From the NCBI GenBank assembly GCA_018900995.1, contig JAHIFH010000012.1, positions 1-47,373 on the forward strand: 47,373 nt of DNA. The letters run 5' to 3'. Each line of letters starts with the position of its first letter. Position 1 is the first letter of the stretch. The notes under the pieces were generated by a model. That model was not told the origin of the DNA. It worked only from the letters and a program-made list of their open reading frames with translations, and searched no databases. The position numbers and the translations under genes are program-made. Below are positions 7,201 to 18,653 of the stretch, one piece after another. Origin of the DNA: Patescibacteria group bacterium (GTDB taxonomy: Bacteria; Patescibacteriota; Microgenomatia; PFEM01; JAHIFH01).

Positions 7201-8004
7201 TTAGCTAATATCGGCTTTAAAATTTAAATCCGGATCATGGCGCCATTTCCGTTTATTATGACCGTCGTAATAGCGAAGAATTTTGAGGCGGTAAAAAACT
7301 GCCAAAGTATCTACAAGCATACCCCAAATTGTCCCAGTCCCTATGCTGGAATATTTTAGTCTTCTGGCATCCATTTCTACCGGACCATCATGAATTTTTT
7401 CAAATCCCAACCTCTTGGCTACTGACAACATCTCAATATCAAAAGCAAAATTTTTCACTAAAAGACGCGGCAAAACCTTTTCCAGAGCTTTCCTTTTGAA
7501 AATCTTCAAACCTCGCTGGCTATCAGTAATCCGCAATCCAAAAAGCCATTTAGTCAGGACATGATACCCCCAACTTAAAATTTTCCTTTTCAGGGGATAC
7601 CCATAAACTTTAGAAGCTGAGTGGCGAATGGAGCCAACGATAATATCGGAACCATACCAAATCATATGTTCCAAGAGTATCGATAAACCATTGGGGTCAA
7701 TATCCATTCCGGCATCAATAAAGGCAATTAGATCCCCTTTTGTTTTTGCCATCCCGTATCGGACTGCATGTCCTTTACCTTTATTTTCCTTGTAGCCAAT
7801 GACCTTTAGTTTTTTAGATTTAACCTTCTTAGCATTTTCATAAGTTTTATCTACTCTTCCATCAATTACACAAATAATTTCATAATCATAACGAATCTGC
7901 TTGAGGACTTCCTCAATCCGCTGAAGGTCTTTTTTAATTGTCTTTTCCTGCTTATAGGCGGGAACGATAACTGAAAGTAGGTGCTTTTTTGGTTTTGTTA
8001 TCAC
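7201..8004 (-). CDS. GT2, polyprenol-phosphate sugar synthase-like (DPM1/GtrB type)
   Basis: LSVIVPAYKQEKTI..., ENKGKGHAVRYGMAKTKGDLIAFIDAG. It overlaps the upstream flippase ORF by 53 nt, so the start is uncertain. Confidence 0.75.
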   Translation of the reverse strand: MITKPKKHLLSVIVPAYKQEKTIKKDLQRIEEVLKQIRYDYEIICVIDGRVDKTYENAKKVKSKKLKVIGYKENKGKGHAVRYGMAKTKGDLIAFIDAGMDIDPNGLSILLEHMIWYGSDIIVGSIRHSASKVYGYPLKRKILSWGYHVLTKWLFGLRITDSQRGLKIFKRKALEKVLPRLLVKNFAFDIEMLSVAKRLGFEKIHDGPVEMDARRLKYSSIGTGTIWGMLVDTLAVFYRLKILRYYDGHNKRKWRHDPDLNFKADIS

Positions 8005-9256
8005 TATAAATATAATATACCAAAAGGCTGATGAGGAGCAAGCTTAGAATAGAAATTGAGACCCAAACTATTTGAGATAAGCTTTGGTGGAAAAGAAAAA
8101 TCAAAATAACTTGGGCAGCAGCAGCAATAACTGGTAAGACAACCACTTTAACTTTTTTTACCGAAAGATAAAAGTTTACTAACAGAGAAGAAAGTGAATA
8201 CAGACTTAAGAATATAGCGAAAAGAAAGAGATAAGGTGAAGCCGAAAGATATTGGCGGCCATAAAGGATATTAATCATTAACTTGGGAAAAAGAAAATAA
8301 ATTCCACTAATCCCCAAACAAGTAAGCAAAACCAAACCCAGGCTTAAACTGAGAAGATTAATGTATTTTTTCCCGTTAGCGTGTCGCTCAGAAACCATCG
8401 GGAACATTACCATAATTATCGGGCTTGAGGCAAAGAAAATGATTTTGCCTAAAGTCGCTAAAGCGGCATAAAAGCCCGCTTCCTGAGCTGGTAAAAAATG
8501 TCTTACCAATACAATGTCAGTCGTATAAAGCGAGGTAAAAGCAAGAGTGGAAAAAAACACTGGAACAGCATATCTAACAATCTCCTGGCTGTTTATCGTT
8601 TTCTTTCTTTCTTTCTTTCTTTCAAATAAACGCCTAACAAAAAAAGCTGTCAATAAATAGCCAATCAGCGCACTTACTAAAAAGGCTAAAACTGCACCTA
8701 AAACTTTCCATCCCAAATAAACTAATAAAACAGCTATTCCAAGTTTTAAGACGACTTGAACTGCTCCTGAAATTGACATTAAACCGAAACGAAGGAATCC
8801 CTGAAGGGTAGTAACGTTAACCATAAAATAGACTCCAACTAAGCTCGATGTTATTATTAACAGCAAAGGTAAAATCGATTTAAGATGAAGAAATGAGGCA
8901 ATTAATGGAGAGATTATTATTAATAACAGAAACCCAGCTAAACTAAAAATTACTAACTTTTTATTTAACCAAGAATAAAAATAAAAAATTGTCCCAAAAT
9001 CCTTTTTCCCTCGTAAGGCAGAGACATATTTAACTACTACCAAACTTAAACTATTAACGGGAATGCTGATTAGATAACTGAAGGAAATCAACGAAGCAAG
9101 AATGCCATAATCAATGGGTCCCAACATCCGCCCCATCAAAAGATGATAAAGATAGTTGCCAAAATTGGCAAACATATTACCGGCAAATAAAATAGCACTA
9201 CCAGCAATCAGCTGATTTTCGATTAATTTCAGTAATTTTAGTTTAAGAGGGTTCAT
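7952..9256 (-). CDS. Wzx/MOP-superfamily oligosaccharide flippase
   Basis: About 12-14 TM helices. The N-terminal AGSAILFAGNMFANFGNYLYHLLMGRMLGPIDYG is typical of polysaccharide-export flippases. Confidence 0.7.
   Translation of the reverse strand: MNPLKLKLLKLIENQLIAGSAILFAGNMFANFGNYLYHLLMGRMLGPIDYGILASLISFSYLISIPVNSLSLVVVKYVSALRGKKDFGTIFYFYSWLNKKLVIFSLAGFLLLIIISPLIASFLHLKSILPLLLIITSSLVGVYFMVNVTTLQGFLRFGLMSISGAVQVVLKLGIAVLLVYLGWKVLGAVLAFLVSALIGYLLTAFFVRRLFERKKERKKTINSQEIVRYAVPVFFSTLAFTSLYTTDIVLVRHFLPAQEAGFYAALATLGKIIFFASSPIIMVMFPMVSERHANGKKYINLLSLSLGLVLLTCLGISGIYFLFPKLMINILYGRQYLSASPYLFLFAIFLSLYSLSSLLVNFYLSVKKVKVVVLPVIAAAAQVILIFLFHQSLSQIVWVSISILSLLLISLLVYYIYSDNKTKKAPTFSYRSRL
8600..8623. repeat. 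Tetranucleotide repeat (TTTC)x6
   Basis: Read directly. On the minus strand it is (GAAA)6, encoding ERKKERKK in the central loop of the flippase. Confidence 0.95.
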
Positions 9257-9270
9257 TTAAAAAAGAGTTA

Positions 9271-10584
9271 CTAAGCCAGCCAGTATCCTCGAGTGAAAAA
9301 TAATAGAGAAATAATTAATAGTGGAATAGCGATGAGCGGATACAAGATTCTCACCCACCTATATTTCTCTGCCCAAATAGCAAGAAGAATAAAGCCAGGA
9401 AAAAGAACCAGGGCATAGCGAGGTAAAGAGGAAAAAGTGCCAGTCAGAGTAGGGGTGATATAAGCTAAAGCCATAAAAGTAACATAAGGATACCAGCGCC
9501 GAAGCCAGGCAAAGAGACTTAGAACTAAAAAGGCAGTGCCACTGAAAAATTCCAAAATAACAACAAAGTAAGTAGGAGTTAACTTTTCACAGGTCACGAG
9601 CATCTTTAGGTAACGCCAAAAAACTTGATAAAGAAGTACTAATTTAGTCGCTGTTCTCCCGGCCCCAAAATAAGGTTGGACGTGAAGAAACAAAAGTGGA
9701 TCCTGGAATTTGGTAGCTAAATAGGACATATAACCAATTAATCCCAAAGGGATAAATAAAAGCGGGATTAAAGTGATCGGTGATCGGTGAGTGGTGGTCG
9801 GTTTTTTTCTGGTCGCTGGTGGCTGGTGGCTGGTAGCTCCTTGCTGCCACCATTCAACAAGCAAGGCTGGAAAGAGAAAAACTCCTGGCAAACGAGTTGA
9901 TGTCGCTAACAAGCCGAAAATACCTGCTAGCCACCAGTGTTTGGTTCTGGCAAAATAAAAACTGGCGAGAACGAGCATTAGGAACAATGACTCGGTATAA
10001 ACGGCGGCAAAGTAAAAAGCCGTCGGGAAAATTAGCAAATAGACAACTGCTCTTTTGGCTATACTTTTTTGATAGTCCAGTCTGATCAATTTATAGAAAA
10101 TTAATAGAGCAAAAAATAAACTAACGGTTGAGACAAACAAACCGGCCACCAAATCACGACCATAAAAAAAGGGGGTTAGAGCCTTGATTAACTTCGGATA
10201 AAGAGGAAAAAAGGCCTGCTGATAAATTCCATATCCCTTTCGGGCAATATCCAAATAATGAATTCCATCAAAATTAGCTCGACTCCAAAGCCAACGGGGG
10301 CTAACCACTTGCTTCTCGGTATAAAGATATTCCATAGTGGTGGGAAAATACTGTTCGCCAAGAACAATTAGACCACCAATCAATACTTGCCAGATGACAA
10401 AAACTGACAGAATAAAAGGAAGAGTTTTTTTACTACACCGGCTGCAAGGCGACACTAGTCGCCGCAGTCCCGCACTAGAACGGTGCGGGATAGCACAGCC
10501 CCGTACGAAAACTCTCTCAGCTTTAGCGCTGGAGGCGTTTTCATTTTTTCGTAATAATTTCCTGATATACTTTGTAAGTTTCAT
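9271..10584 (-). CDS. PIG-V-like (GT76-type) polytopic mannosyltransferase
   Basis: NFDGIHYLDIARKGYG...QAFFPLYP matches the PIG-V family signature. Multiple TM helices. The N-terminal 55 aa are atypical and GC-rich. Confidence 0.65.
   Translation of the reverse strand: MKLTKYIRKLLRKNENASSAKAERVFVRGCAIPHRSSAGLRRLVSPCSRCSKKTLPFILSVFVIWQVLIGGLIVLGEQYFPTTMEYLYTEKQVVSPRWLWSRANFDGIHYLDIARKGYGIYQQAFFPLYPKLIKALTPFFYGRDLVAGLFVSTVSLFFALLIFYKLIRLDYQKSIAKRAVVYLLIFPTAFYFAAVYTESLFLMLVLASFYFARTKHWWLAGIFGLLATSTRLPGVFLFPALLVEWWQQGATSHQPPATRKKPTTTHRSPITLIPLLFIPLGLIGYMSYLATKFQDPLLFLHVQPYFGAGRTATKLVLLYQVFWRYLKMLVTCEKLTPTYFVVILEFFSGTAFLVLSLFAWLRRWYPYVTFMALAYITPTLTGTFSSLPRYALVLFPGFILLAIWAEKYRWVRILYPLIAIPLLIISLLFFTRGYWLA
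9773..9838. repeat. Composite element: 4 heptamers, GTTTTTTTCT, 4 heptamers (66 nt)
   Basis: gtgatcg gtgatcg gtgagtg gtggtcg gtttttttct ggtcgct ggtggct ggtggct ggtagct. It encodes ATSHQPPATRKKPTTTHRSPIT. Confidence 0.9.
10442..10490. other. GC-rich twin hairpin element
   Basis: Hairpin A: CTGC-aa-GGCGAC ACTA GTCGCC-GCAG (10442-10467). Hairpin B: TCCCGCAC TAGAACG GTGCGGGA (10468-10490). Both were verified base by base. Confidence 0.8.
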
Positions 10585-11587
10585 TGGCTACCTTTTCCCA
10601 ACTAAATTTTTTCGCTTGCTTTAATCCCTTTTCTATTAAATCCTCTCTTAAATCTTCGTCTTCAATGACAACTGTCAAACCATTAGCAATATCATTTATA
10701 TCATAAGGGTCAACGAAAACTGCTGCCTTGCCTGCGATTTCCGGCAAACTCGCCTTTTTGCTCGTTACTACTGGAGTTCCGCAAGCCATCGCTTCGAGAA
10801 CCGGCAAGCCAAAGCCTTCGTAAAATGACGGCTGACAATAAACGGTGGCTAAATTATAAAGGACGACTAAATCTTTATCGGGAACAAAACCAGTGAGGAT
10901 GATTGATGATTTGCAGTAATCCTGCAACCAAACTAAATCGCGGTTTTCAGGATGGCTTCGGTCAATTTTTCTCTCAACTGCCTGTTTGCCGACAATAACT
11001 AAGGGTATTTTTGCTTTCTCGCAAGCCTTGACCAGGCCGCGAATATTTTTATTGTAATTAACGTCACCGACGTATAAAACAAACTTACTGGGAAGATGAT
11101 ATTTTTGTTTTACAGTAACCAGTGATTGGTGACTAGTAATCGGTTTAAAAATATCAGCCGCCGCCAAATAAACAACATGAATTTTTTCTTTTGAATAATC
11201 TAAATATTTAGTGATGTCTTTTTTAGAGTTTTTAGAATCGGTAATGACACCACTCGCTGTTCTTAGAGCCAGCTTTTGGGCTCTAAATTTCAACTTACCC
11301 TTTATTCCAGGCGGATAATGTTCTGGAAAAACTAGCGGCGTAGTGTCGTGAATGGTGACTACCGTCTTTTTCTTTCTCATTAAAGGTAAAGTCATAAAAA
11401 ACAAATCAAAATAAGAATAATGAATTAAGTCGCAATCTTGAGGAATTTCTCCTTCTTCCACTAAAACCAACTCAAAATCAGCCCTTTTGAAAGACTGCAA
11501 AGCCTTAACAAGATTCTTAGTATAGGCGCCAATGCCCCGAAATTGATGGGCTGACTTTAATGGAGAAATATCAATGGCAACTTTCAT
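10541..11587 (-). CDS. GT4 family (GT-B) glycosyltransferase
   Basis: PSFYEGFGLPVLEAMACGTPVVTS is the Glycos_transf_1 E-x7-E region. Confidence 0.9.
   Translation of the reverse strand: MKVAIDISPLKSAHQFRGIGAYTKNLVKALQSFKRADFELVLVEEGEIPQDCDLIHYSYFDLFFMTLPLMRKKKTVVTIHDTTPLVFPEHYPPGIKGKLKFRAQKLALRTASGVITDSKNSKKDITKYLDYSKEKIHVVYLAAADIFKPITSHQSLVTVKQKYHLPSKFVLYVGDVNYNKNIRGLVKACEKAKIPLVIVGKQAVERKIDRSHPENRDLVWLQDYCKSSIILTGFVPDKDLVVLYNLATVYCQPSFYEGFGLPVLEAMACGTPVVTSKKASLPEIAGKAAVFVDPYDINDIANGLTVVIEDEDLREDLIEKGLKQAKKFSWEKVANETYKVYQEIITKK
11115..11142. repeat. Heptamer tandem array GTRAYYR x4
   Basis: gtaacca gtgattg gtgacta gtaatcg, then gttt. It encodes KPITSHQSLVT. Confidence 0.85.
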
Positions 11588-11597
11588 AATTCTATTT

Positions 11598-12467
11598 TTA
11601 CTTTCTTACTAAGTATCGCCAGTAGGCCCTAGGAAATCTTAGGGCAGAGAAAAAAGAAAAAACAATTCCTTGAAAGCTATCAAGAATTCCTTTATGCCTA
11701 ATAAGAGTTAACAAGAACCAATGAATAGGTTTTATCAAGGAATAATTTAGGAACTGAATTGGATTTTTACCTAATCGGGCTTCTTTAAACTCAGCTGTGA
11801 TTAAATCAATATACTTACTGTTCCTTTCAAGATATCTTTTAAATGTCGGGTCAGCTAGATGAATAAGGTCATTCTGCAACCAGCCTATCCTGCCATTAAT
11901 TACAATCTGTTCATGAACACTTTTGCACGGAAAATATGCTTTGCCATTCTTGACTAGACGAATGACCCCATCAGGATAAACACCGCCATAGCGAAGGTAT
12001 TTACCCAAAAAGTAATTTAAGCGGGGCATAAAAAATCCAGCATATTCTCCGCTGTCTTTACCAATTTTCCCATCTCTTTTTTCTATTATCCTTTGATGCC
12101 TTTGAAACAAATTCTTATTTGGAAGCGTTTCTTGATATTTCTTGATTTTCCTTTCACTTAAGGAAACAATCATTTTAATCTCCTCAGCTAATTTCTTTGT
12201 CACCCTCTCATCAGCATCCAATTGGAGAATCCACTCTCCCTTACAAGCATCAAGGGCTTTTTGTTTATTAATGTGAAAGATAGGTGGATTATCAGTCACC
12301 ATTACTTTGGCGCCGTGTTTTTTAGCGATGGCAACCGTATCATCTTCAGAAGAACCATCAACCACAACAATCTCATCCGCTAAATCTTTCACTGACTCCA
12401 AACAGGAGCCAATATTTTCTTCCTCGTTATAGGTGGCTAGGGCTACAGAAATAGTTTTTTTCTTCAT
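11598..12467 (-). CDS. GT2 glycosyltransferase (WaaE/KdtX-like subgroup with helical C-terminal domain)
   Basis: ISVALATYNEEENIGSCLESVKDLADEIVVVDGSSEDDT and LQLDADERV. Paralogous to 31940..32716 and 33599..34501. Confidence 0.9.
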   Translation of the reverse strand: MKKKTISVALATYNEEENIGSCLESVKDLADEIVVVDGSSEDDTVAIAKKHGAKVMVTDNPPIFHINKQKALDACKGEWILQLDADERVTKKLAEEIKMIVSLSERKIKKYQETLPNKNLFQRHQRIIEKRDGKIGKDSGEYAGFFMPRLNYFLGKYLRYGGVYPDGVIRLVKNGKAYFPCKSVHEQIVINGRIGWLQNDLIHLADPTFKRYLERNSKYIDLITAEFKEARLGKNPIQFLNYSLIKPIHWFLLTLIRHKGILDSFQGIVFSFFSALRFPRAYWRYLVRK

Positions 12468-13609
12468 TTAATCCCCATCTTCTTTGTTTCAACTTTTTCT
12501 GGCAGCATGAACTTAACCGAGTCATCAGCGGTAATGCCCTTTTCATCCGCTAAAACTAAATTAATAGCATGAACAATAACTAAATGGGCGGTTTGAATTT
12601 TTGATGAAGATGGACCCTCGGGTTTGGAATTACTTTTAATAATGTATTCCGCCTGTTTTCCTAAGGGGGTATCAATATTCTCGGTAATAGCAACGGTAAT
12701 TGCTTTTTTCTTTCTCGCCTGTCTTAAGGTCTCGTAAACAAAGCCTGTCCCTCCGCTAGCAGAGACACTAATAACCACATCTCCTTTATTAACTACAAAA
12801 TTAATATAACGAGAAAGTCCGGCTTCTTCTTCAGCAGTACCCTTAGCAAAACTCACTGGTTGGGCCTCAGCTAAATCATTAGTAAAAGCCAAAATAGGCA
12901 AACCTGTCTCTAAACCTTGACCCGCCATTTCTTTAGCCACCAAAGCCGAGGCGCCCGCCCCTGTAACAATAATTTTTTTGCCTTTTTTAATTTGCCGATC
13001 GATCATCTTGATTACCTTAATAATCCCTTCCTCGCTAGTGTGATAAGTTTCGGCTAAACCTTTTTGCTCCTCATCAAACACTCGCTTTATCTTATCCTCT
13101 ATTGTTTTACAGCCTTCAAAATCAATGGAAACCATCATCGGTTTGTTAATATCAATTAGCTGGCCAACACTATCGATCAAAATTAGGTCCTTATAAGAAG
13201 TTTTGGTGAATTCCAGAGTCGTTCCCGGCAAATCACCAACTTTATAGGCAGTCCCACAGAGATAGTTAATCAAGCTCGTTTTACCAGCATTGAAAACTCC
13301 GAGAACAATTACTCTGTCTTTGTTAAAAAAGTCATCTATTTTTCTTTTTAACTTCAAAAGGTTCTTTCTGGTCTTTAAAGAAATTGGCAAAACATTGTCT
13401 TTCAATTCTTTCTCTATCTTAAGGTAAGAATTATTCCTCACCCTGTCATTCTTGTTTCCAACTACAAAGTACTTCAACCCCTTTTCTTGACAAGCATCAA
13501 TAAAGGCTTTGATGGTATTAATTTGGGGGTCGACTAAATTGGCTATCACAATCGCCCCAGAGGGTCTAGCTTGTAAAAATGGTGCCGAAATTTTTTTGGT
13601 TACTCTCAT
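12464..13609 (-). CDS. Circularly permuted GTPase domain fused to a SIS (sugar-phosphate isomerase/binding) domain
   Basis: Motif order is G4 GNKND, then G1 GVFNAGKTS, then G2 PGTT, then G3 DSVG. The SIS domain follows: KIIVTGAGASALVAKEMAGQG and VVISVSASGGT. ATGA-type 4-nt overlaps occur at both ends. Confidence 0.7.
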   Translation of the reverse strand: MRVTKKISAPFLQARPSGAIVIANLVDPQINTIKAFIDACQEKGLKYFVVGNKNDRVRNNSYLKIEKELKDNVLPISLKTRKNLLKLKRKIDDFFNKDRVIVLGVFNAGKTSLINYLCGTAYKVGDLPGTTLEFTKTSYKDLILIDSVGQLIDINKPMMVSIDFEGCKTIEDKIKRVFDEEQKGLAETYHTSEEGIIKVIKMIDRQIKKGKKIIVTGAGASALVAKEMAGQGLETGLPILAFTNDLAEAQPVSFAKGTAEEEAGLSRYINFVVNKGDVVISVSASGGTGFVYETLRQARKKKAITVAITENIDTPLGKQAEYIIKSNSKPEGPSSSKIQTAHLVIVHAINLVLADEKGITADDSVKFMLPEKVETKKMGIK

Positions 13610-15291
13610 GTTTTAACAATTTGAAAGGCGATGCTTCCATCTTTAAAATAAATTTCTTTAGTTATCTTCGGTGGGGGTGGGATTTTTCCTTCCTCTATTA
13701 ACCTTCGGGTTTTTTCATCGATTGTTAGTTCTGGAATTTCTTTATCAGTTCCAATAATAAGAACATTCTTCTGCTTTTTCAGTTCTTCAAAATTAATTGA
13801 TGCAAAATGATATTTATCAAAATCACGAACCGTTGAAAAACCAAATTTATCTCGAGGAGTCAACTTGACCTCTTGCTGAAATTGTTCTGGAGGATATTTC
13901 AGATAAAAAAGAAATAAAATGTAGGGTTGATCATACTTATCAGTGACGTAAATCCGTTCGTACTTCCCTTCGACTTCTTGAACATAACTAACTAATTGAT
14001 CAAAGCCATATTCCCAAGCATCTGGGTAAGTTTTAGGATAGTGAACATAGTATTGATGTAAATAATAAGTCGTACTCCAAAGAAGAACAACAGCAACCAG
14101 TAACCAGTAACTAGTAACCAGTGGTTTCTTTGCTTTCGTCTTAACCCATAACCAGCTTTGATAAAAACCATAAGCGCTAATGATAATTAAAGGGATAACC
14201 ATCATTAAAGACCGAAGAGCATGGGGAGTTTGGAAAGTCATTGCTGCCGCCACTGGCGCCACTGCTAACCAAAGAAAAACCACTAACCAATTTTTTGGCT
14301 GCTTTTTAAGAAGAAAATAAATCCCTAAAACAACGAGAAGAATATCAAATAAATACATCTGTCCCATGTCGGGAACACGACTTCTCTCGATTACATCGCC
14401 TGTTATGAATAAATATTCTCCCTGAAGATGGTCGAACCAGTTTTTGGCAAAAGCAATTGAATAACCAATGAACCGATTGTGAATTAAGCGTACTGGTAAA
14501 GCCATTGTATCTCCATGATGACCTCGTAGTTCATTAATTCTCCATAATGGTCCCGTGTCTGCCAGTAATCCCACTCCCGCAAACCGCGAAATCCCTGCTG
14601 GACCAAAGAAACTAATGATCAAAGGAATTAGAATTATGAACCCCACGATTCCACTAATTAATACCCATTGGCGATTTTTTCGTTGGAAAAGCCTCTTACG
14701 ATAAAGAAAAATTAATCCTAAGCCCAAAAGTGGAACAATTATCCGCGCGCTATGGTAGGTATAAAAAGATAAACCATAAAACAAAACAGAGAAGACAAAA
14801 AATCTTGGCTTCTCTAATCCCTTGAAAAATAGCCAGCTACCCAAAAGAATAAGGCAAGTAGCCGCGTTTGTTTCCCATCCTCCGCGGGAAAAATGTAGAT
14901 GCCAAGGGGAAATGGCTAAGAAAAACGCTGATAACAACCCCCAAACTTCGTTTTTAAACAACTCTTTAACCAATAAATAAATCAACCAAACGCTGAGAGT
15001 TCCCAAAATCGCTGATGGCAATCTAACCGCCAGAACATTAAGTCCTAAAATCTTGACCAAGGGAAGAACAAGATAAAAATAAAGTCCAGGCTTGTAATCG
15101 CCAAATGACTTGAAATGTATCGGCCACGAATTACCATGCTCATCCTTTCCAGTCAAAATCAGAGAATAAGCGTTATAGCCAATTGCTGCCTCATCGGCAT
15201 TAAGACCAGCAGGGTAACTGCTAAGACCCCATAATCGTAAGATTGAGGCGAGTAATAAGATTAACCCCAAGCAAAAAATTTTAAATTTCAT
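13606..15291 (-). CDS. GT39/PMT_2-type polytopic glycosyltransferase (GT-C), paralogue 1
   Basis: LNADEAAIGYNAYSLILTGKDEHGNSWPIHFKSFGDYKPGLYFY loop-1 DE motif. More than 10 TM helices. C-terminal soluble domain with PYILFLFYLKYPPEQF. Confidence 0.85.
   Translation of the reverse strand: MKFKIFCLGLILLLASILRLWGLSSYPAGLNADEAAIGYNAYSLILTGKDEHGNSWPIHFKSFGDYKPGLYFYLVLPLVKILGLNVLAVRLPSAILGTLSVWLIYLLVKELFKNEVWGLLSAFFLAISPWHLHFSRGGWETNAATCLILLGSWLFFKGLEKPRFFVFSVLFYGLSFYTYHSARIIVPLLGLGLIFLYRKRLFQRKNRQWVLISGIVGFIILIPLIISFFGPAGISRFAGVGLLADTGPLWRINELRGHHGDTMALPVRLIHNRFIGYSIAFAKNWFDHLQGEYLFITGDVIERSRVPDMGQMYLFDILLVVLGIYFLLKKQPKNWLVVFLWLAVAPVAAAMTFQTPHALRSLMMVIPLIIISAYGFYQSWLWVKTKAKKPLVTSYWLLVAVVLLWSTTYYLHQYYVHYPKTYPDAWEYGFDQLVSYVQEVEGKYERIYVTDKYDQPYILFLFYLKYPPEQFQQEVKLTPRDKFGFSTVRDFDKYHFASINFEELKKQKNVLIIGTDKEIPELTIDEKTRRLIEEGKIPPPPKITKEIYFKDGSIAFQIVKT
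14093..14120. repeat. Heptamer tandem array GYAACYA x4
   Basis: gcaacca gtaacca gtaacta gtaacca, then gtggttt. It encodes part of KKPLVTSYWLLV. Confidence 0.85.
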
Positions 15292-16964
15292 AATGTTTCT
15301 ACCACCCGATAAGCTACTTTGCCGTCAAGAAAATGTATTGTTTTTAAAACTTTTGCTCCGGGTGTTCGGGCAATATCATCAAGCGGCAGCTCGAACTCGT
15401 CACCAATAAAAAGATAGTTTTGGCGATTTCTGTCTTCTGGCCAATAAATATTTCTGAATTCGATGTTATCAACATTCTCAACTAAACCAACATCACCCCA
15501 AGGGTCTTCTTTTAAATAGGCTTGAGGCTGATAATCTTTAGGCGGATATTTGGTGTAAAAAAGATAAAAGATATACGGCTGACCATATTCTTGAGTTACC
15601 ACTACTTTCTTATACTTTTCTTTCCCCTCTTCAATTATATTGGCTACCTCTTCCATGCCATAATTCCAACCCGCAGAGTTTTTCTTGGGAAAATGAATAT
15701 AGTAAAGATCAAAATAAAGGGTCAAACAAAATAGATAACCACAGACAATCAAAAAAACTCCGATTAACGAAAACCGCTTAAATCTTTTCTTAAGCCATAA
15801 GTAAAAAACACATATTCCCATGGCAGTAAAAATTATTAAAGGAATGACCATCCAATATGACCTTAATCCATGAACAGCATCCCGGGTGACAGCCGCAGGG
15901 ACCGGGCCAGTAATTAGCCACCAAAAGAAAAGGTTCTTTTCTCGGCTTTTTTCTTTTGCCAAAGCATATCCTATTCCAACAATAAGAAAAGGGATTTCAA
16001 TATAATACATCATTCCCATATAAGGAGCGCTATGTCTAGGCGACTGCCAGTCACCTTCAAAAAAGAGAAATTTTCCCGTAAAGTGATTAAAGTAGCGATC
16101 GGCAATCCAGCGCATCTTGTTTAAAGCCTCATTGTGGAAAAGATAAAAACTCAAATTGGGAAACGTTTCTTCCTGAGAGATAATTTCTGCCACTTCTTCC
16201 TCAGACCTCGTATAAGAAAAAAGACTTGTCACTCTGGCTCTTCTCGCACTGCCTTTAAACGAAAGCAATAAAGGAAACAGGAGGAAAATAAGCAAGAGCA
16301 ATCCAATTATCTTTTTCTTCTTTGGTAAACTCAGTAAATTTTGCCAAAAAATTGCTAATGCCCCACCCAGAAGAACAATTAAGAACACCTTCGCTCCGTG
16401 ATAAATGTTCATGGAAACCGCAAAAAAGAAAAAGGTGAGCAAGAAAAATTTGAGTGCTTTTGTTTGAATGGCTTTTAAAAAGAAAATAATCCCTAAAACA
16501 ATGGTGAAAAGAGCTAAATTAACTTCCCAAGCCCCTCGAGAAAAATTAATGTTCCAAGGCGAAATCGCTAAAAGTAAAGAAGAAAGATAAGGAAGATAGG
16601 TAAACTCTTTTCTTTTGGCAAAAAGCATCTTAGTTAAGAAGAATATGGCTATTACTGTGCCAACACCAGCTAAAGCAGAGGGAAACCTAATGGCAAATTT
16701 TGTTAAACCAAAAATAGCTACCGAGGGAATGATATAGTAAAAAAAGAATCCAGGTTTGTCATCGCCAAAAGACTTAAAAGTAAGGGGTAGTAACTTTCCA
16801 TATTCGTCTTTGCCGGTTTTCAAAATTGAATAAGCGTTATAGCCTACGGCTGGCTCATCCCAAGTTATTCCAACAGGATATTCGCCAAGCTTATAGACTC
16901 TTAAAGAAAATGCCAAAATGGCAATCAAAATCAGTGGCCAATATTTTTTTAGAAATTCTTTCAT
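15288..16964 (-). CDS. GT39/PMT_2-type polytopic glycosyltransferase, paralogue 2
   Basis: ITWDEPAVGYNAYSILKTGKDEYGKLLPLTFKSFGDDKPGFFFY and the C-terminal QPYIFYLFYTKYPPKDYQ. Confidence 0.85.
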   Translation of the reverse strand: MKEFLKKYWPLILIAILAFSLRVYKLGEYPVGITWDEPAVGYNAYSILKTGKDEYGKLLPLTFKSFGDDKPGFFFYYIIPSVAIFGLTKFAIRFPSALAGVGTVIAIFFLTKMLFAKRKEFTYLPYLSSLLLAISPWNINFSRGAWEVNLALFTIVLGIIFFLKAIQTKALKFFLLTFFFFAVSMNIYHGAKVFLIVLLGGALAIFWQNLLSLPKKKKIIGLLLLIFLLFPLLLSFKGSARRARVTSLFSYTRSEEEVAEIISQEETFPNLSFYLFHNEALNKMRWIADRYFNHFTGKFLFFEGDWQSPRHSAPYMGMMYYIEIPFLIVGIGYALAKEKSREKNLFFWWLITGPVPAAVTRDAVHGLRSYWMVIPLIIFTAMGICVFYLWLKKRFKRFSLIGVFLIVCGYLFCLTLYFDLYYIHFPKKNSAGWNYGMEEVANIIEEGKEKYKKVVVTQEYGQPYIFYLFYTKYPPKDYQPQAYLKEDPWGDVGLVENVDNIEFRNIYWPEDRNRQNYLFIGDEFELPLDDIARTPGAKVLKTIHFLDGKVAYRVVETL

Positions 16965-16991
16965 TTTGAGCCTGCGAAAAACAAGCTTTGC

Positions 16992-18653
16992 TTATCTTTC
17001 TAAAATCTCAAAAGCCGAACTACCATCAAGAAAATCAATTGTTTTTATTTTACTCCATCCCTCCGGATAATTCCCAGGGCTAGTAATCAGCAAACTCCTG
17101 GCTCCTGACTCCTGGCTCCTGACTCCTGAAATTTCCCAGTCATTAACAAAGACAAACTTATCAAAAGAATCAACCCAATACCAATCGGTCTTAAAATAAC
17201 GGATTAAATAAGGATCGCTGCGATATTTTTCGGGATCCCATTTCAAATAAAAAAGCAAAAATTCATGGGGTTCACCATACTTCTTGGTAATGAAAATTTT
17301 ATCGTAGTCATTGTAGTGAGACTGAATGTAATTAGCCACTTCTTTATAGCCATATTGCCAAGACCATGAGTAGTCTTGGCGATAGGAGCCGAAATAGGCG
17401 TTTAAATAACTAAAAAACGAAATGAAAATTGTTAAAAGAAAAGCAACTAACAAAATTTGCCCTGTTTTTTTTCTTTTTTGAATGAAAAGAGTCAGCTGAA
17501 AAACGCCAAGAGCGCTTAAAATCTGAGGCAAAGGAAGGATGGTCGAAGCTCTGATAACATGACTCCCTCCGCGAGTCAACGCCGCTGGGATTGGCGCCAG
17601 AAGAAGCCAAAGTAAAACCGCCTGGGCAAATTTTTTCTTTTTAATCAATACCCAAAAGACTAAAAAGCCAAGCCCGAGGTAGAAAAAAGGCATCTCAACC
17701 GGATATAAAACCCCCCTTCCTGGAACACTGAACTGATACTGAGTTCCTCCCTTGAAAAAAAGAAACCGAGGAGAAAAATAGCCAAGATAATTAATAAAGA
17801 AATGGGTTAAAAAATATGTTGGTCGATTATAAACTAAACGAGTTAAAAATTCGGGTAGATTTGATTGAAGCCGGTCCTCAATAATCTGATTAATTGCCCC
17901 TTCATCAATAATTGAAACCCAGTGGGCTCTGGCTCGGCCCTCAGAGCCTAGGAGAATAGGTACTAGGGGAACAAAAAAGACTAAAAGCAAAAGGATCGCT
18001 ACTATCAGATAAATCCTTTTCTTTTGCCACCATCTTTTCCATTCATCTTGATAAAGAAAAGCTAAGGCAACAATTAACAAGGGAACGAAAATCCGAGCAT
18101 TATGATAAGAATAAACTGAAATTCCTAACGCCAAAGCCGCCAAGGGTAAAAAGAACGCTCTTTTCTTTCGATGAAAGAAAAGAGCCATTCCTGTGGTAAT
18201 AAAAAATAAACTAACGTTTGACTGAACCACAAATCTCGAAGGAAACAAAGTCCAGGGGCTAATTGCCACCAGCAAAGCCGCAAGAAGACTAATTCCAACA
18301 CTAAATCCTATCCCCTGAGCAAGAAAAAAACAAGCAAGGATGGTTAAAGCCCCCATAAAAGCATGTGGAGCCCGAATTCCAAACTCGTTTAAACCAAATA
18401 ACGAAATGCTAGGAATAGTAATGTAAAGATTAACTGGCAAGGGATAATCACCGTAGGCACGAAAATTAGCCAGGGGCATAAATTGACCCCACTCATCCTT
18501 ACCGTTTTTCAAAATTGAATAAGCGTTATAGCCGTGACTGACTTCATCCCAATTTAAAGCCGGGGGCATGGTGGCTAAATTGAAAAACCTTAAGATTAAA
18601 CCTAAAAAGAAGATTAAAATAATCAGAGTGAAATGAATTTTTCTCTTAGCCAT
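16992..18653 (-). CDS. GT39/PMT_2-type polytopic glycosyltransferase, paralogue 3
   Basis: LNWDEVSHGYNAYSILKNGKDEWGQFMPL and the C-terminal EPHEFLLFYLKWDPEKYR. Confidence 0.85.
   Translation of the reverse strand: MAKRKIHFTLIILIFFLGLILRFFNLATMPPALNWDEVSHGYNAYSILKNGKDEWGQFMPLANFRAYGDYPLPVNLYITIPSISLFGLNEFGIRAPHAFMGALTILACFFLAQGIGFSVGISLLAALLVAISPWTLFPSRFVVQSNVSLFFITTGMALFFHRKKRAFFLPLAALALGISVYSYHNARIFVPLLIVALAFLYQDEWKRWWQKKRIYLIVAILLLLVFFVPLVPILLGSEGRARAHWVSIIDEGAINQIIEDRLQSNLPEFLTRLVYNRPTYFLTHFFINYLGYFSPRFLFFKGGTQYQFSVPGRGVLYPVEMPFFYLGLGFLVFWVLIKKKKFAQAVLLWLLLAPIPAALTRGGSHVIRASTILPLPQILSALGVFQLTLFIQKRKKTGQILLVAFLLTIFISFFSYLNAYFGSYRQDYSWSWQYGYKEVANYIQSHYNDYDKIFITKKYGEPHEFLLFYLKWDPEKYRSDPYLIRYFKTDWYWVDSFDKFVFVNDWEISGVRSQESGARSLLITSPGNYPEGWSKIKTIDFLDGSSAFEILER
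17095..17129. repeat. Heptamer tandem array CTCCTGR x5
   Basis: ctcctgg ctcctga ctcctgg ctcctga ctcctga. It encodes SGVRSQESGARS. Confidence 0.9.

Follow-up and report, generated by a model that had tools for sequence, protein, structure and literature searches.

All circularly permuted GTPases characterised so far act, to our knowledge, on ribosomes, and we know of no P-loop GTPase that gates a sugar isomerase. In MurR and RpiR, the SIS domain is a sensor. The combination of a P-loop NTPase and a sugar-phosphate-binding domain is found in RapZ/YvcJ, a sensor of glucosamine-6-phosphate (GlcN6P) which controls GlmS. Cells cannot build an envelope without the GlcN6P/UDP-GlcNAc node, which antibiotics target, and the GlcN6P-sensing glmS ribozyme represses its downstream genes when GlcN6P is high. 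In two riboswitch surveys (PMC2258182, PMC5473149), this ribozyme is described only as controlling glmS.

Here we describe a protein in which the motifs of a GTPase follow each other in the order G4-G5-G1-G2-G3 and are then followed by a single SIS domain (the GTPase–SIS protein). Its gene lies in the window, the whole 47,373-nucleotide stretch of DNA of a Patescibacteria group bacterium that was analysed, within a series of genes for glycosyltransferases and a flippase (Table 1). The open reading frame is not a chance reading frame, since more than 480 full-length homologues exist. The original prediction had described a fusion of a permuted GTPase with a SIS domain, whose gene overlaps by 4 nt with an upstream GT39 (PMT_2) gene and with a GT2 gene on its other side; both overlaps, each an ATGA, are read in the sequence, the motifs lie where they had been placed, and profile and structure searches back both halves of the protein. 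The downstream gene order of the window is kept in one other locus (L001) and partly in a second (L008).

Table 1. Features of the GTPase–SIS gene and of its neighbours in the window (res, residues of the GTPase–SIS protein).
Feature	Position	Strand	Basis or remark
GTPase–SIS gene, whole ORF, circularly permuted GTPase + SIS	12464..13609	minus	intact, 381 aa plus stop
ATGA overlap, stop of upstream PMT_2 gene / start of GTPase–SIS gene	13606..13609	minus	read directly from sequence
ATGA overlap, stop of GTPase–SIS gene / start of downstream GT2 gene	12464..12467	minus	read directly from sequence
Three tandem PMT/PMT_2 (GT-C) genes upstream	13606..18653 (13606-15291, 15288-16964, 16992-18653)	minus	Pfam
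Same-strand block downstream	7952..12467	minus	ORFs and Pfam
GT2 gene downstream	11598-12467	minus	
GT4 gene downstream	10541-11587	minus	
437-aa protein downstream, no Pfam match	9271-10584	minus	
Polysacc_synt flippase downstream	7952-9256	minus	
Circularly permuted G domain, res 1-168, beta4-alpha3-beta5-G4-...-G1-G2-G3	13106..13609	minus	Pfam, NCBIfam, PDB profiles, Foldseek
G4 NKND, res 52-55, guanine specificity	13445..13456	minus	N52, K53, D55 invariant
G1 P-loop GVFNAGKT, res 104-111	13277..13300	minus	motif
G2 PGTT, res 128-131, switch I	13217..13228	minus	motif, family alignment
G3 DSVGQ, res 146-150	13160..13174	minus	Gln150 invariant
Switch II and linker, res 151-169, IDxxKPxMVSxDxxxC	13103..13159	minus	largely invariant, low pLDDT
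Single SIS domain, res 170-381, MurQ/GmhA/PHI-like fold	12467..13102	minus	Pfam, NCBIfam, structure comparison
First SIS loop GAGAS, res 217-221, followed by invariant E227, Q231	12947..12961	minus	alignment
Phosphate-binding loop SASGGT, res 283-288	12746..12763	minus	family alignment; S283 to Y292 invariant
KPEGPSSSKIQTAHLVIVH, res 329-347	12569..12625	minus	Q339, H347 align with GmhA Q175, H183
C-terminal tail TKKMGIK, res 375-381	12467..12487	minus	family alignment; all invariant but I380

The assignment of the N-terminal half to the permuted GTPases is drawn from several searches. In Pfam, MMR_HSR1 matches residues 99-190 above its cut-off (44.7 bits), and RsgA_GTPase matches residues 19-130 with a score of 31.2 against a cut-off of 30, collinearly over G4, G1 and G2. 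Among profiles of PDB entries, those of YqeH, RsgA and YlqF match the G domain. An AF2 model of residues 1-171 (pLDDT 80.2) was used for a Foldseek search, in which the top 18 matches are all circularly permuted GTPases (Nog2, Lsg1, Nug1-type and YqeH) that align over about 165 columns with a TM of about 0.6, whereas Ras and Rab proteins align over 80-100 columns only. The predicted structure thus supports the fold of permuted GTPases for the G domain, which superposes on them in sequence order. The sequence itself scores best against Der/EngA, across the junction of GD1 and GD2, and the permutation may therefore have arisen independently in this family. Beyond the G domain, Pfam gives only SIS and SIS_2 and no RNA-binding accessory domain; switch II runs on directly into the long helix with which the SIS half begins.

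In this C-terminal half, SIS_2 (residues 183-309) and SIS (residues 271-342) both match over their Pfam cut-offs, and the corresponding part of a full-length model finds MurQ, MurR, PHI, GmhA and also RpiR in Foldseek. How the two domains are placed relative to each other is uncertain in this model (pTM 0.60), and a Foldseek search with the whole model returned no solved structure spanning both. Comparison with the GmhA structures 5lu7 and 2x3y (B. pseudomallei numbering) equates D61 with V224, H64 with E227, E68 with Q231, Q175 with Q339 and H183 with H347, and all five residues of the GTPase–SIS protein are invariant across its family. Since E68, the catalytic Glu of GmhA, is thereby replaced by an invariant Gln and D61 by Val, a GmhA-type mechanism is excluded; the replacement of the catalytic Glu is also compatible with a pure binding role. 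The likeness to GmhA/KpsF-type isomerases noticed earlier consequently stands at the level of the fold, but does not extend to the D61, H64 and E68 positions of GmhA, nor to the CBS domains.

The family comprises hundreds of proteins of about 385 aa, all at least 48% identical. In an alignment of 45 sequences from both deep clades, 94 residues are invariant. They take in motifs G1-G4, switch II, the phosphate loops of the SIS domain together with a cluster of its polar residues, and the tail at the C-terminus; the invariant termini, RVxKK and TKKMGIK, are basic. Two relatives carry inteins, one inserted in the P-loop (P0123, GVFN^SGKT) and one in the region of residues 329-347 (P0122, KPEGP^SSSK), and the exact placement of these insertions marks both loops as critical sites. 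A SIS-only relative (P0128) and a G-domain-only relative (P0131) also exist; they do not adjoin each other and so say nothing on a functional coupling of the two halves. That the domain combination corresponds to no described family was borne out: no NCBIfam model passes its cut-off, a full-text literature search found no paper on the family, and the homologues are labelled in their sources only as 'SIS domain-containing protein' or 'GutQ/EngB' (in JGI, 'GutQ').

The family is rare and patchy, being present in none of 400 sampled genomes of the phylum, and in 3 of 22 in the order, while a set of 185,579 species genomes yields about 50 loci; it is spread over Patescibacteria, DPANN archaea, Chloroflexota, Bipolaricaulota and methanotrophs. 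As cultured methanotrophs are among the carriers, its function is directly testable. A role as a patchy, horizontally spread defence gene was considered and rejected, as PADLOC gives P-loop noise only (LeoA, 19.9 bits; mad8, 17.5 bits).

Across the family, the recurring partners of the gene are the glmS ribozyme, GlmS, GlmM and GlmU. In 23 loci of three phyla, the ribozyme (RF00234, scored above the gathering threshold) directly precedes the GTPase–SIS gene at a distance of 100-180 nt, namely 16 in Chloroflexota, 5 in Bipolaricaulota and 2 in 'Thermotogae' MAGs. GlmS directly follows the GTPase–SIS gene in 13 Chloroflexota loci, and in 8 of the 23 ribozyme loci no GlmS follows it. In genomes G001-G005, the ribozyme linked to the GTPase–SIS gene is the sole copy of the genome, and GlmS is encoded on another contig without a ribozyme. 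In an Aenigmatarchaeota MAG in which neither GlmS nor NagB was found, the gene stands between Arch_glmU and a GlmM-like gene, with 4-nt overlaps, and this mutase is the only one of the MAG. A bona fide glmM adjoins or lies near the gene in Methylomicrobium lacus and Methylobacter, and no other neighbour recurs in as many lineages as GlmM; in some loci, genes for a UDP-sugar dehydrogenase, an epimerase or a HAD protein are found nearby. No Rfam match was found in the window, so that ribozyme control is a property of the relatives and not of the window's copy.

In the window's genome no GlmS, NagB or GlmU was found, and the link of the window's copy to hexosamines is therefore drawn from relatives of 49-60% identity. 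GlmS is retained in every larger-genome carrier tested, so the protein is not simply a replacement of GlmS, a role that is unsupported in general. None of 400 sampled GlmS-poor Patescibacteria carries the gene. Within the window's order, the GTPase–SIS gene and GlmS are each present in 4 of 23 genomes and never together, an exclusion that is not significant (C(19,4)/C(23,4), P ~0.44 by chance). In the GlmS-less carriers, no known enzyme for the conversion of Fru6P to GlcN6P was found. PGI of the PF00342 type is absent from many carriers, yet a bifunctional PGI/PMI of the SIS type is encoded in each of those checked (G001, G030 and G000); the protein is therefore not the generic isomerase, and its reading as the missing PGI/PMI is rejected.

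Control by the glmS ribozyme, or adjacency to glmS, glmM or glmU, in other microbes indicates that the GTPase–SIS protein probably helps to supply amino sugars for the cell envelope. More specifically, we tentatively favour, at somewhat less than an even chance, a putative GTP-switch-coupled phosphosugar protein which acts positively at the entry of GlcN6P into UDP-GlcNAc and hexosamine synthesis. Its SIS domain would bind a hexose- or hexosamine-6-phosphate, and the GTP or GDP state of the G domain would, via switch II, gate the SIS site or an oligomer. Within this reading we favour an enzymatic role, in which the protein would most likely form GlcN6P, perhaps from Fru6P through amination and isomerisation, or would in some other way drive flux into GlcN6P. 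Larger genomes would then have a conditional route in addition to GlmS, and for GlmS-less Patescibacteria and DPANN it may be the sole route to GlcN6P. On the same reading, the window's copy has been recruited into the PMT_2/GT2/GT4/flippase operon and would there supply, or control the supply of, sugar-phosphate precursors of an envelope glycan. It counts against this reading that the protein has a single SIS domain and lacks a glutaminase, in which it differs from GlmS and from SIS-type deaminases. A bolder form of this proposal, which we consider unlikely, is a putative GlmS-independent, GTP-gated GlcN6P synthase, performing for instance an ammonia-dependent amination and isomerisation of Fru6P at an oligomer of single SIS domains, over which the invariant, Lys-rich C-terminal tail would close as a lid.

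A nucleotide-gated sugar-phosphate isomerase or sensor of precursor supply had been suggested from the outset, and such a function fits the evidence; its anchoring in a glycosyltransferase pathway does not generalise, as the GT-C/GT2 neighbourhood is confined to the clade to which the window belongs (window, L001 and L008). This restricted context weighs against the reading that the protein is a pathway-specific isomerase or etherase for an envelope glycan of the heptose, Kdo or MurNAc type, serving its local glycosylation operon with no special tie to GlcN6P. The 4-nt overlaps with PMT_2 and GT2, the synteny in L001 and L008, the polysaccharide genes near the gene in several loci and best profile and fold matches to MurQ, PHI and GmhA are in line with it. 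It leaves the 23 ribozyme loci and the glmU–glmM operon unexplained, however, the catalytic residues of GmhA are not kept, and the scores against the models of GmhA (TIGR00441, 38.2 bits against a cut-off of 209.45), MurQ (PRK05441, 55.7 against 168; TIGR00274, 43.2 against 302) and KpsF (TIGR00393, 25.8 against 203.7) are far under the cut-offs, which makes it improbable. A still less credible proposal, to which we attach very little weight, is a ribosome- or RNA-associated GTPase whose SIS domain couples translation or ribosome assembly to sugar-phosphate status. Here, the nearest structural relatives are indeed assembly factors (Nog2, Lsg1, YqeH and RbgA), the invariant termini are basic, and CysRS or tRNA genes lie near the gene in a few loci; against this stand the lack of a Pfam RNA-binding domain, a distribution unlike that of a housekeeping gene, the metabolic neighbours and the invariant Gln after G3, for which we know of no counterpart in the permuted GTPases of ribosome assembly.

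Closer to the favoured role is a non-catalytic sensor, in which GlcN6P, Fru6P or a UDP-sugar would be sensed by the SIS domain, upon which the GTP switch would bind a partner such as GlmM or GlmS and activate it. We hold this to be possible, if somewhat unlikely. The Gln that stands in for GmhA's catalytic Glu, the nature of the G domain as a classic switch module and the MurR and RpiR sensors among the Foldseek matches speak for it, as do the prevalence of GlmM as neighbour and the co-occurrence with GlmS in every non-reduced carrier tested; the invariance of both termini and of many surface-like positions suggests macromolecular contacts. The control of GlmS by RapZ/YvcJ and GlmR would be its functional analogue. 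Yet the gene is kept in genomes without GlmS, its neighbours are enzymes and not regulators, the partner interface is purely hypothetical, and repression of a mere sensor by the ribozyme would be an indirect design.

If the favoured role as a GTP-switch-coupled phosphosugar protein holds, the family would be the first in which a permuted GTPase is coupled to a domain that binds metabolites or acts as an enzyme. The family also widens the glmS ribozyme regulon, in which the sole ribozyme of some genomes controls the GTPase–SIS gene instead of glmS, and it may explain how some ultra-small symbionts without GlmS and NagB feed GlmM and GlmU. A previously undescribed player at the GlcN6P/UDP-GlcNAc node matters precisely because this node is essential and an antibiotic target. 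Should the protein be a GTP-gated GlcN6P synthase, hexosamine biosynthesis would have a second entry, and the GlcN6P gap of Patescibacteria and DPANN that lack GlmS and NagB would be filled. In some Bipolaricaulota, the sole glmS ribozyme would then have this protein's gene as its real target, and for the first time a permuted GTPase would be known to control not ribosome assembly but an enzyme of metabolism.

With RbgA/YlqF, YqeH, RsgA/YjeQ, Nog2 and Lsg1, the protein shares the permuted motif order, the fold and the attachment of a further domain directly after switch II. It differs from the RbgA/YqeH/RsgA group in its invariant Gln150 and in carrying a SIS phosphosugar domain where those proteins have an RNA-binding domain, and its rare, patchy and horizontally spread occurrence contrasts with the near-universal presence of the permuted ribosome-assembly GTPases. 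The SIS fold with its GxGxS and SxSGxT phosphate loops is common to MurQ, GmhA and 6-phospho-3-hexuloisomerase, and the GmhA-like Q...H pair of the last helix is kept (Q339, H347); the N-terminal G domain and the invariant C-terminal tail are additional to these enzymes. The resemblance to RapZ/YvcJ, in which an NTP-binding P-loop domain is likewise joined to a phosphosugar-binding domain at the GlcN6P node, is a functional analogy only: the halves of RapZ/YvcJ are a kinase-like P-loop domain and a PFK-like domain, with folds unrelated to those found here, and no homology between the two surfaced in any search. KpsF/GutQ offers an architectural analogy, a SIS domain fused to a nucleotide-binding regulatory module, which in KpsF/GutQ is a tandem CBS pair following the SIS domain and here, where Pfam gives no CBS match, is the N-terminal GTPase. 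GlmS combines a class-II glutaminase with two SIS domains, whereas the GTPase–SIS protein has one SIS domain and no GATase match in Pfam and scores 27.8 bits against the GlmS model TIGR01135 (cut-off 418). The two nevertheless share a regulon and neighbourhood, through the glmS ribozyme and the glmS operon of Chloroflexota, as well as SIS-type sugar-phosphate binding, which is predicted for the GTPase–SIS protein, and in the archaeal operon between glmU and glmM the GTPase–SIS gene sits where glmS would be expected.

The gene under study is a single reading frame in the window whose product joins a permuted GTPase half to a SIS half, and all motifs of the original prediction were found in the predicted order. 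Pfam models MMR_HSR1 and RsgA_GTPase match the N-terminal half and SIS and SIS_2 the C-terminal half, all above the cut-offs, and the RsgA model is collinear with the protein from G4 via G1 to G2. The NCBIfam models for YqeH, YlqF and RsgA are likewise collinear with the protein, at scores far below their cut-offs. The NCBIfam profile search returned no family-specific model, and the searchable literature yielded no paper that connects a SIS domain to a permuted GTPase, nor one that connects such a gene to the glmS ribozyme (an earlier mention is possible in either case). The proposal that this combination is an undescribed family therefore holds.

Coordinates of the GTPase-SIS gene, its motifs and operon genes in the window
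Feature	Position	Strand
GTPase-SIS open reading frame, intact, 381 aa	12464-13609	minus
Motifs, permuted half (residues)	NKND 52-55; GVFNAGKT 104-111; PGTT 128-131; DSVG(Q) 146-150
Motifs, SIS half (residues)	GAGAS 217-221; SASGGT 283-288
Three tandem PMT/PMT_2 (GT-C) paralogues, ~555 aa each, directly upstream	13606-18653	minus
437-aa open reading frame, same operon, without Pfam match	9271-10584

In the full-length AF2 model (pLDDT 78, pTM 0.60), a Rossmann-like G domain is followed by switch II and the linker (residues 149-160, low confidence) and by a long helix (residues 170-208) leading into an alpha/beta SIS core. The C-terminal half was confirmed by Foldseek matches to MurQ, MurR, PHI (YckF) and GmhA; a Foldseek search with the full-length model found no solved structure spanning both halves. 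For residues 1-171 modeled alone (pLDDT 80), the top 18 matches are all permuted GTPases (Nog2, Lsg1, Nug1-type, YqeH), with RbgA as a weaker match, and they align over ~165 columns as opposed to 80-100 for Ras/Rab, so the predicted circular permutation is real. The best PDB profile scores belong to Der/EngA, across the boundary between its two tandem G domains, and this sequence-profile result hints at a permutation that possibly arose separately, from an Era/EngA-like ancestor.

The homologue search returned more than 480 full-length proteins of ~385 aa, with identities of 56-83% among the best 120; the source databases label them just 'SIS domain-containing protein', 'hypothetical protein' or 'GutQ/EngB'. 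Clustering at 50% identity leaves the family with a single full-length representative in the library searched, where the next matches are generic SIS proteins at ~1e-8. A comparison of 45 sequences drawn from the two deep clades shows 94 invariant residues, including G4, G1, G2, G3, Gln150 and most of switch II/linker in the G half, the SIS loops, E227, Q231, E234, K256, E260, T309-E310-N311, KPEGPSS, Q339, H342 and H347 in the SIS half, and both termini (RVxKK... and ...TKKMGxK). Inteins are typically inserted at indispensable sites, and two relatives contain inteins carrying homing-endonuclease modules, one splitting the P-loop at GVFN^SGKT (P0123; equivalent to residues 107/108, nt 13286-13291 in the window) and one the invariant SIS loop at KPEGP^SSSK (P0122; residues 333/334, nt 12608-12613). 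Stand-alone relatives of each half are also present, namely a SIS-only gene (238 aa, 45% identical; L075 381-1097) adjoining a PTPS/QueD-like gene, and a permuted-GTPase-only gene (183 aa, 42% identical; L076 1573-2124) in surroundings that look archaeal (MJ0235, TumE, DUF1616). The 'SIDLxGC' linker is retained in each, and at the examined loci the two kinds were not found adjacent to each other.

A scan of 185,579 species genomes returned 50 loci, in Chloroflexota/Anaerolineae, Bipolaricaulota, 'Thermotogae' MAGs, Patescibacteria, two DPANN archaea, Gallionella and the cultured methanotrophs Methylobacter luteus and Methylomicrobium lacus. The gene occurs in three of 22 other genomes of the window's taxonomic order, in only one of two genomes of genus g4, and in none of a phylum-wide sample of 400 genomes. 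In the protein tree, which splits into two deep clades, Bipolaricaulota occur in both, archaeal sequences are nested among bacterial ones, and the window's lineage lies on a long branch. Given this patchy distribution and mixed tree, the gene is rare and accessory, passed on horizontally and kept under very strong purifying selection. In M. lacus, an IS110-family transposase lies just past the gene and its glmM neighbour (L048 12675-13697), which fits regional mobility.

The functional context is provided by these relatives. A glmS ribozyme (RF00234, above the gathering score) precedes the gene by 100-180 nt in 23 loci (16 Chloroflexota, five Bipolaricaulota and two 'Thermotogae' MAGs); it is full-length except in one locus, where the contig end truncates it. 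GlmS is encoded directly downstream in 13 Chloroflexota loci, and eight of the 23 ribozyme-bearing loci have no GlmS behind the gene. In five Bipolaricaulota/'Thermotogae' MAGs (G001-G005; L016, L018, L021, L023, L019), the sole glmS ribozyme of the assembly precedes the GTPase-SIS gene, and the bona fide GlmS is encoded on another contig without one (L059-L063). The ribozyme represses downstream genes at high glucosamine-6-phosphate (GlcN6P; PMC2258182, PMC5473149), so its placement before this gene alone, in three phyla, implies that the protein is wanted at low GlcN6P. An Aenigmatarchaeota MAG, in which neither GlmS nor NagB was found, encodes Arch_glmU (above the cut-off), the GTPase-SIS protein and its only GlmM-like mutase, in that order and with 4-nt overlaps, and in M. 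lacus and Methylobacter the gene adjoins, or lies three to four genes from, bona fide glmM (TIGR01455, 565-570 bits). Together, ribozyme placement and glmS, glmM and glmU neighbours mark the protein as one that promotes the supply of GlcN6P/UDP-GlcNAc. On a metagenome contig, it stands between an epimerase and a GlmM-like mutase, in a cluster with a DegT-family aminotransferase, a Polysacc_synt_2-family dehydratase and Glycos_transf_4 that would be of the bacillosamine type, consuming UDP-GlcNAc. Neighbours recurring elsewhere are a UDP-sugar dehydrogenase, an epimerase, and a HAD phosphatase with a LacI regulator. In a second group of Bipolaricaulota, which lacks the ribozyme and belongs to the tree's other deep clade (L036, L038, L041-L044, L051), most loci share parts of an arrangement of PF04008 'adenosine-specific kinase', the GTPase-SIS gene, a HAD hydrolase, a LacI regulator and two Pfam-less proteins. 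In one 'Thermotogae' MAG, a c-di-GMP-I-GGC riboswitch (RF03167, 67 bits; L035 18833-18912) lies ~8 kb from the gene.

For the window's organism, this hexosamine link would be carried over from relatives 49-60% identical in sequence, which share all 94 invariant residues, since GlmS, NagB and a GlmU-like nucleotidyltransferase were not found in its 708-kb, ~91% complete genome and Rfam detected no RNA family in the window. The genome has a single mutase of the PGM/PMM type, encoded at a contig end. It also encodes a SIS-type bifunctional phosphoglucose/phosphomannose isomerase whose 5' end is cut by the contig start (C49, bases 1-1030); a PF00342-type PGI was not found in this genome.

The window itself could suggest a glycan-specific isomerase, as the gene's start overlaps the stop of the upstream PMT_2 gene, and its stop the start of the downstream GT2 gene, each in an ATGA read from the sequence. 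The expectation that homologues always adjoin GT-C or GT2 genes failed, however: the order of three PMT_2 genes, GTPase-SIS gene, GT2, GT4 and flippase is common only to the window and one locus (L001, 75% identical), and partly to another (L008, 77%), and this reading is less likely. The 437-aa reading frame, kept at the same position in L001, could be a glycosyltransferase or polymerase that has gone unrecognised. The L008 record (CAZPFP010000020.1), titled 'uncultured Gammaproteobacteria bacterium', is probably mislabelled, as its genome (G015) is placed in the window's Patescibacteria family and it shares part of the PMT_2/GT2 synteny. A ribosome-linked GTPase is also less likely.

We favour an enzymatic role, in which the protein forms GlcN6P or pushes flux into it, because its neighbours are pathway enzymes, the carriers checked already encode PGI/PMI (which excludes the protein as such an isomerase), and the gap in carriers lacking GlmS and NagB is precisely the step from fructose-6-phosphate to GlcN6P. 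In permuted GTPases (RbgA, YqeH, RsgA), the G domain ends C-terminally in switch II, which the next domain holds; here, near-invariant switch II/linker runs into the first SIS helix, which suggests signal transfer to the SIS half, and the nucleotide state could thereby act through switch II on the phosphosugar site or the SIS oligomer. Against the enzymatic role, there is one SIS domain only, and all larger carriers tested retain GlmS. The main rival is a sensor or activator that would functionally resemble RapZ/GlmR, the regulators of GlmS. The comparison with GmhA also speaks against the enzymatic role, as its catalytic Glu and its Asp61 are replaced by Gln231 and Val224.
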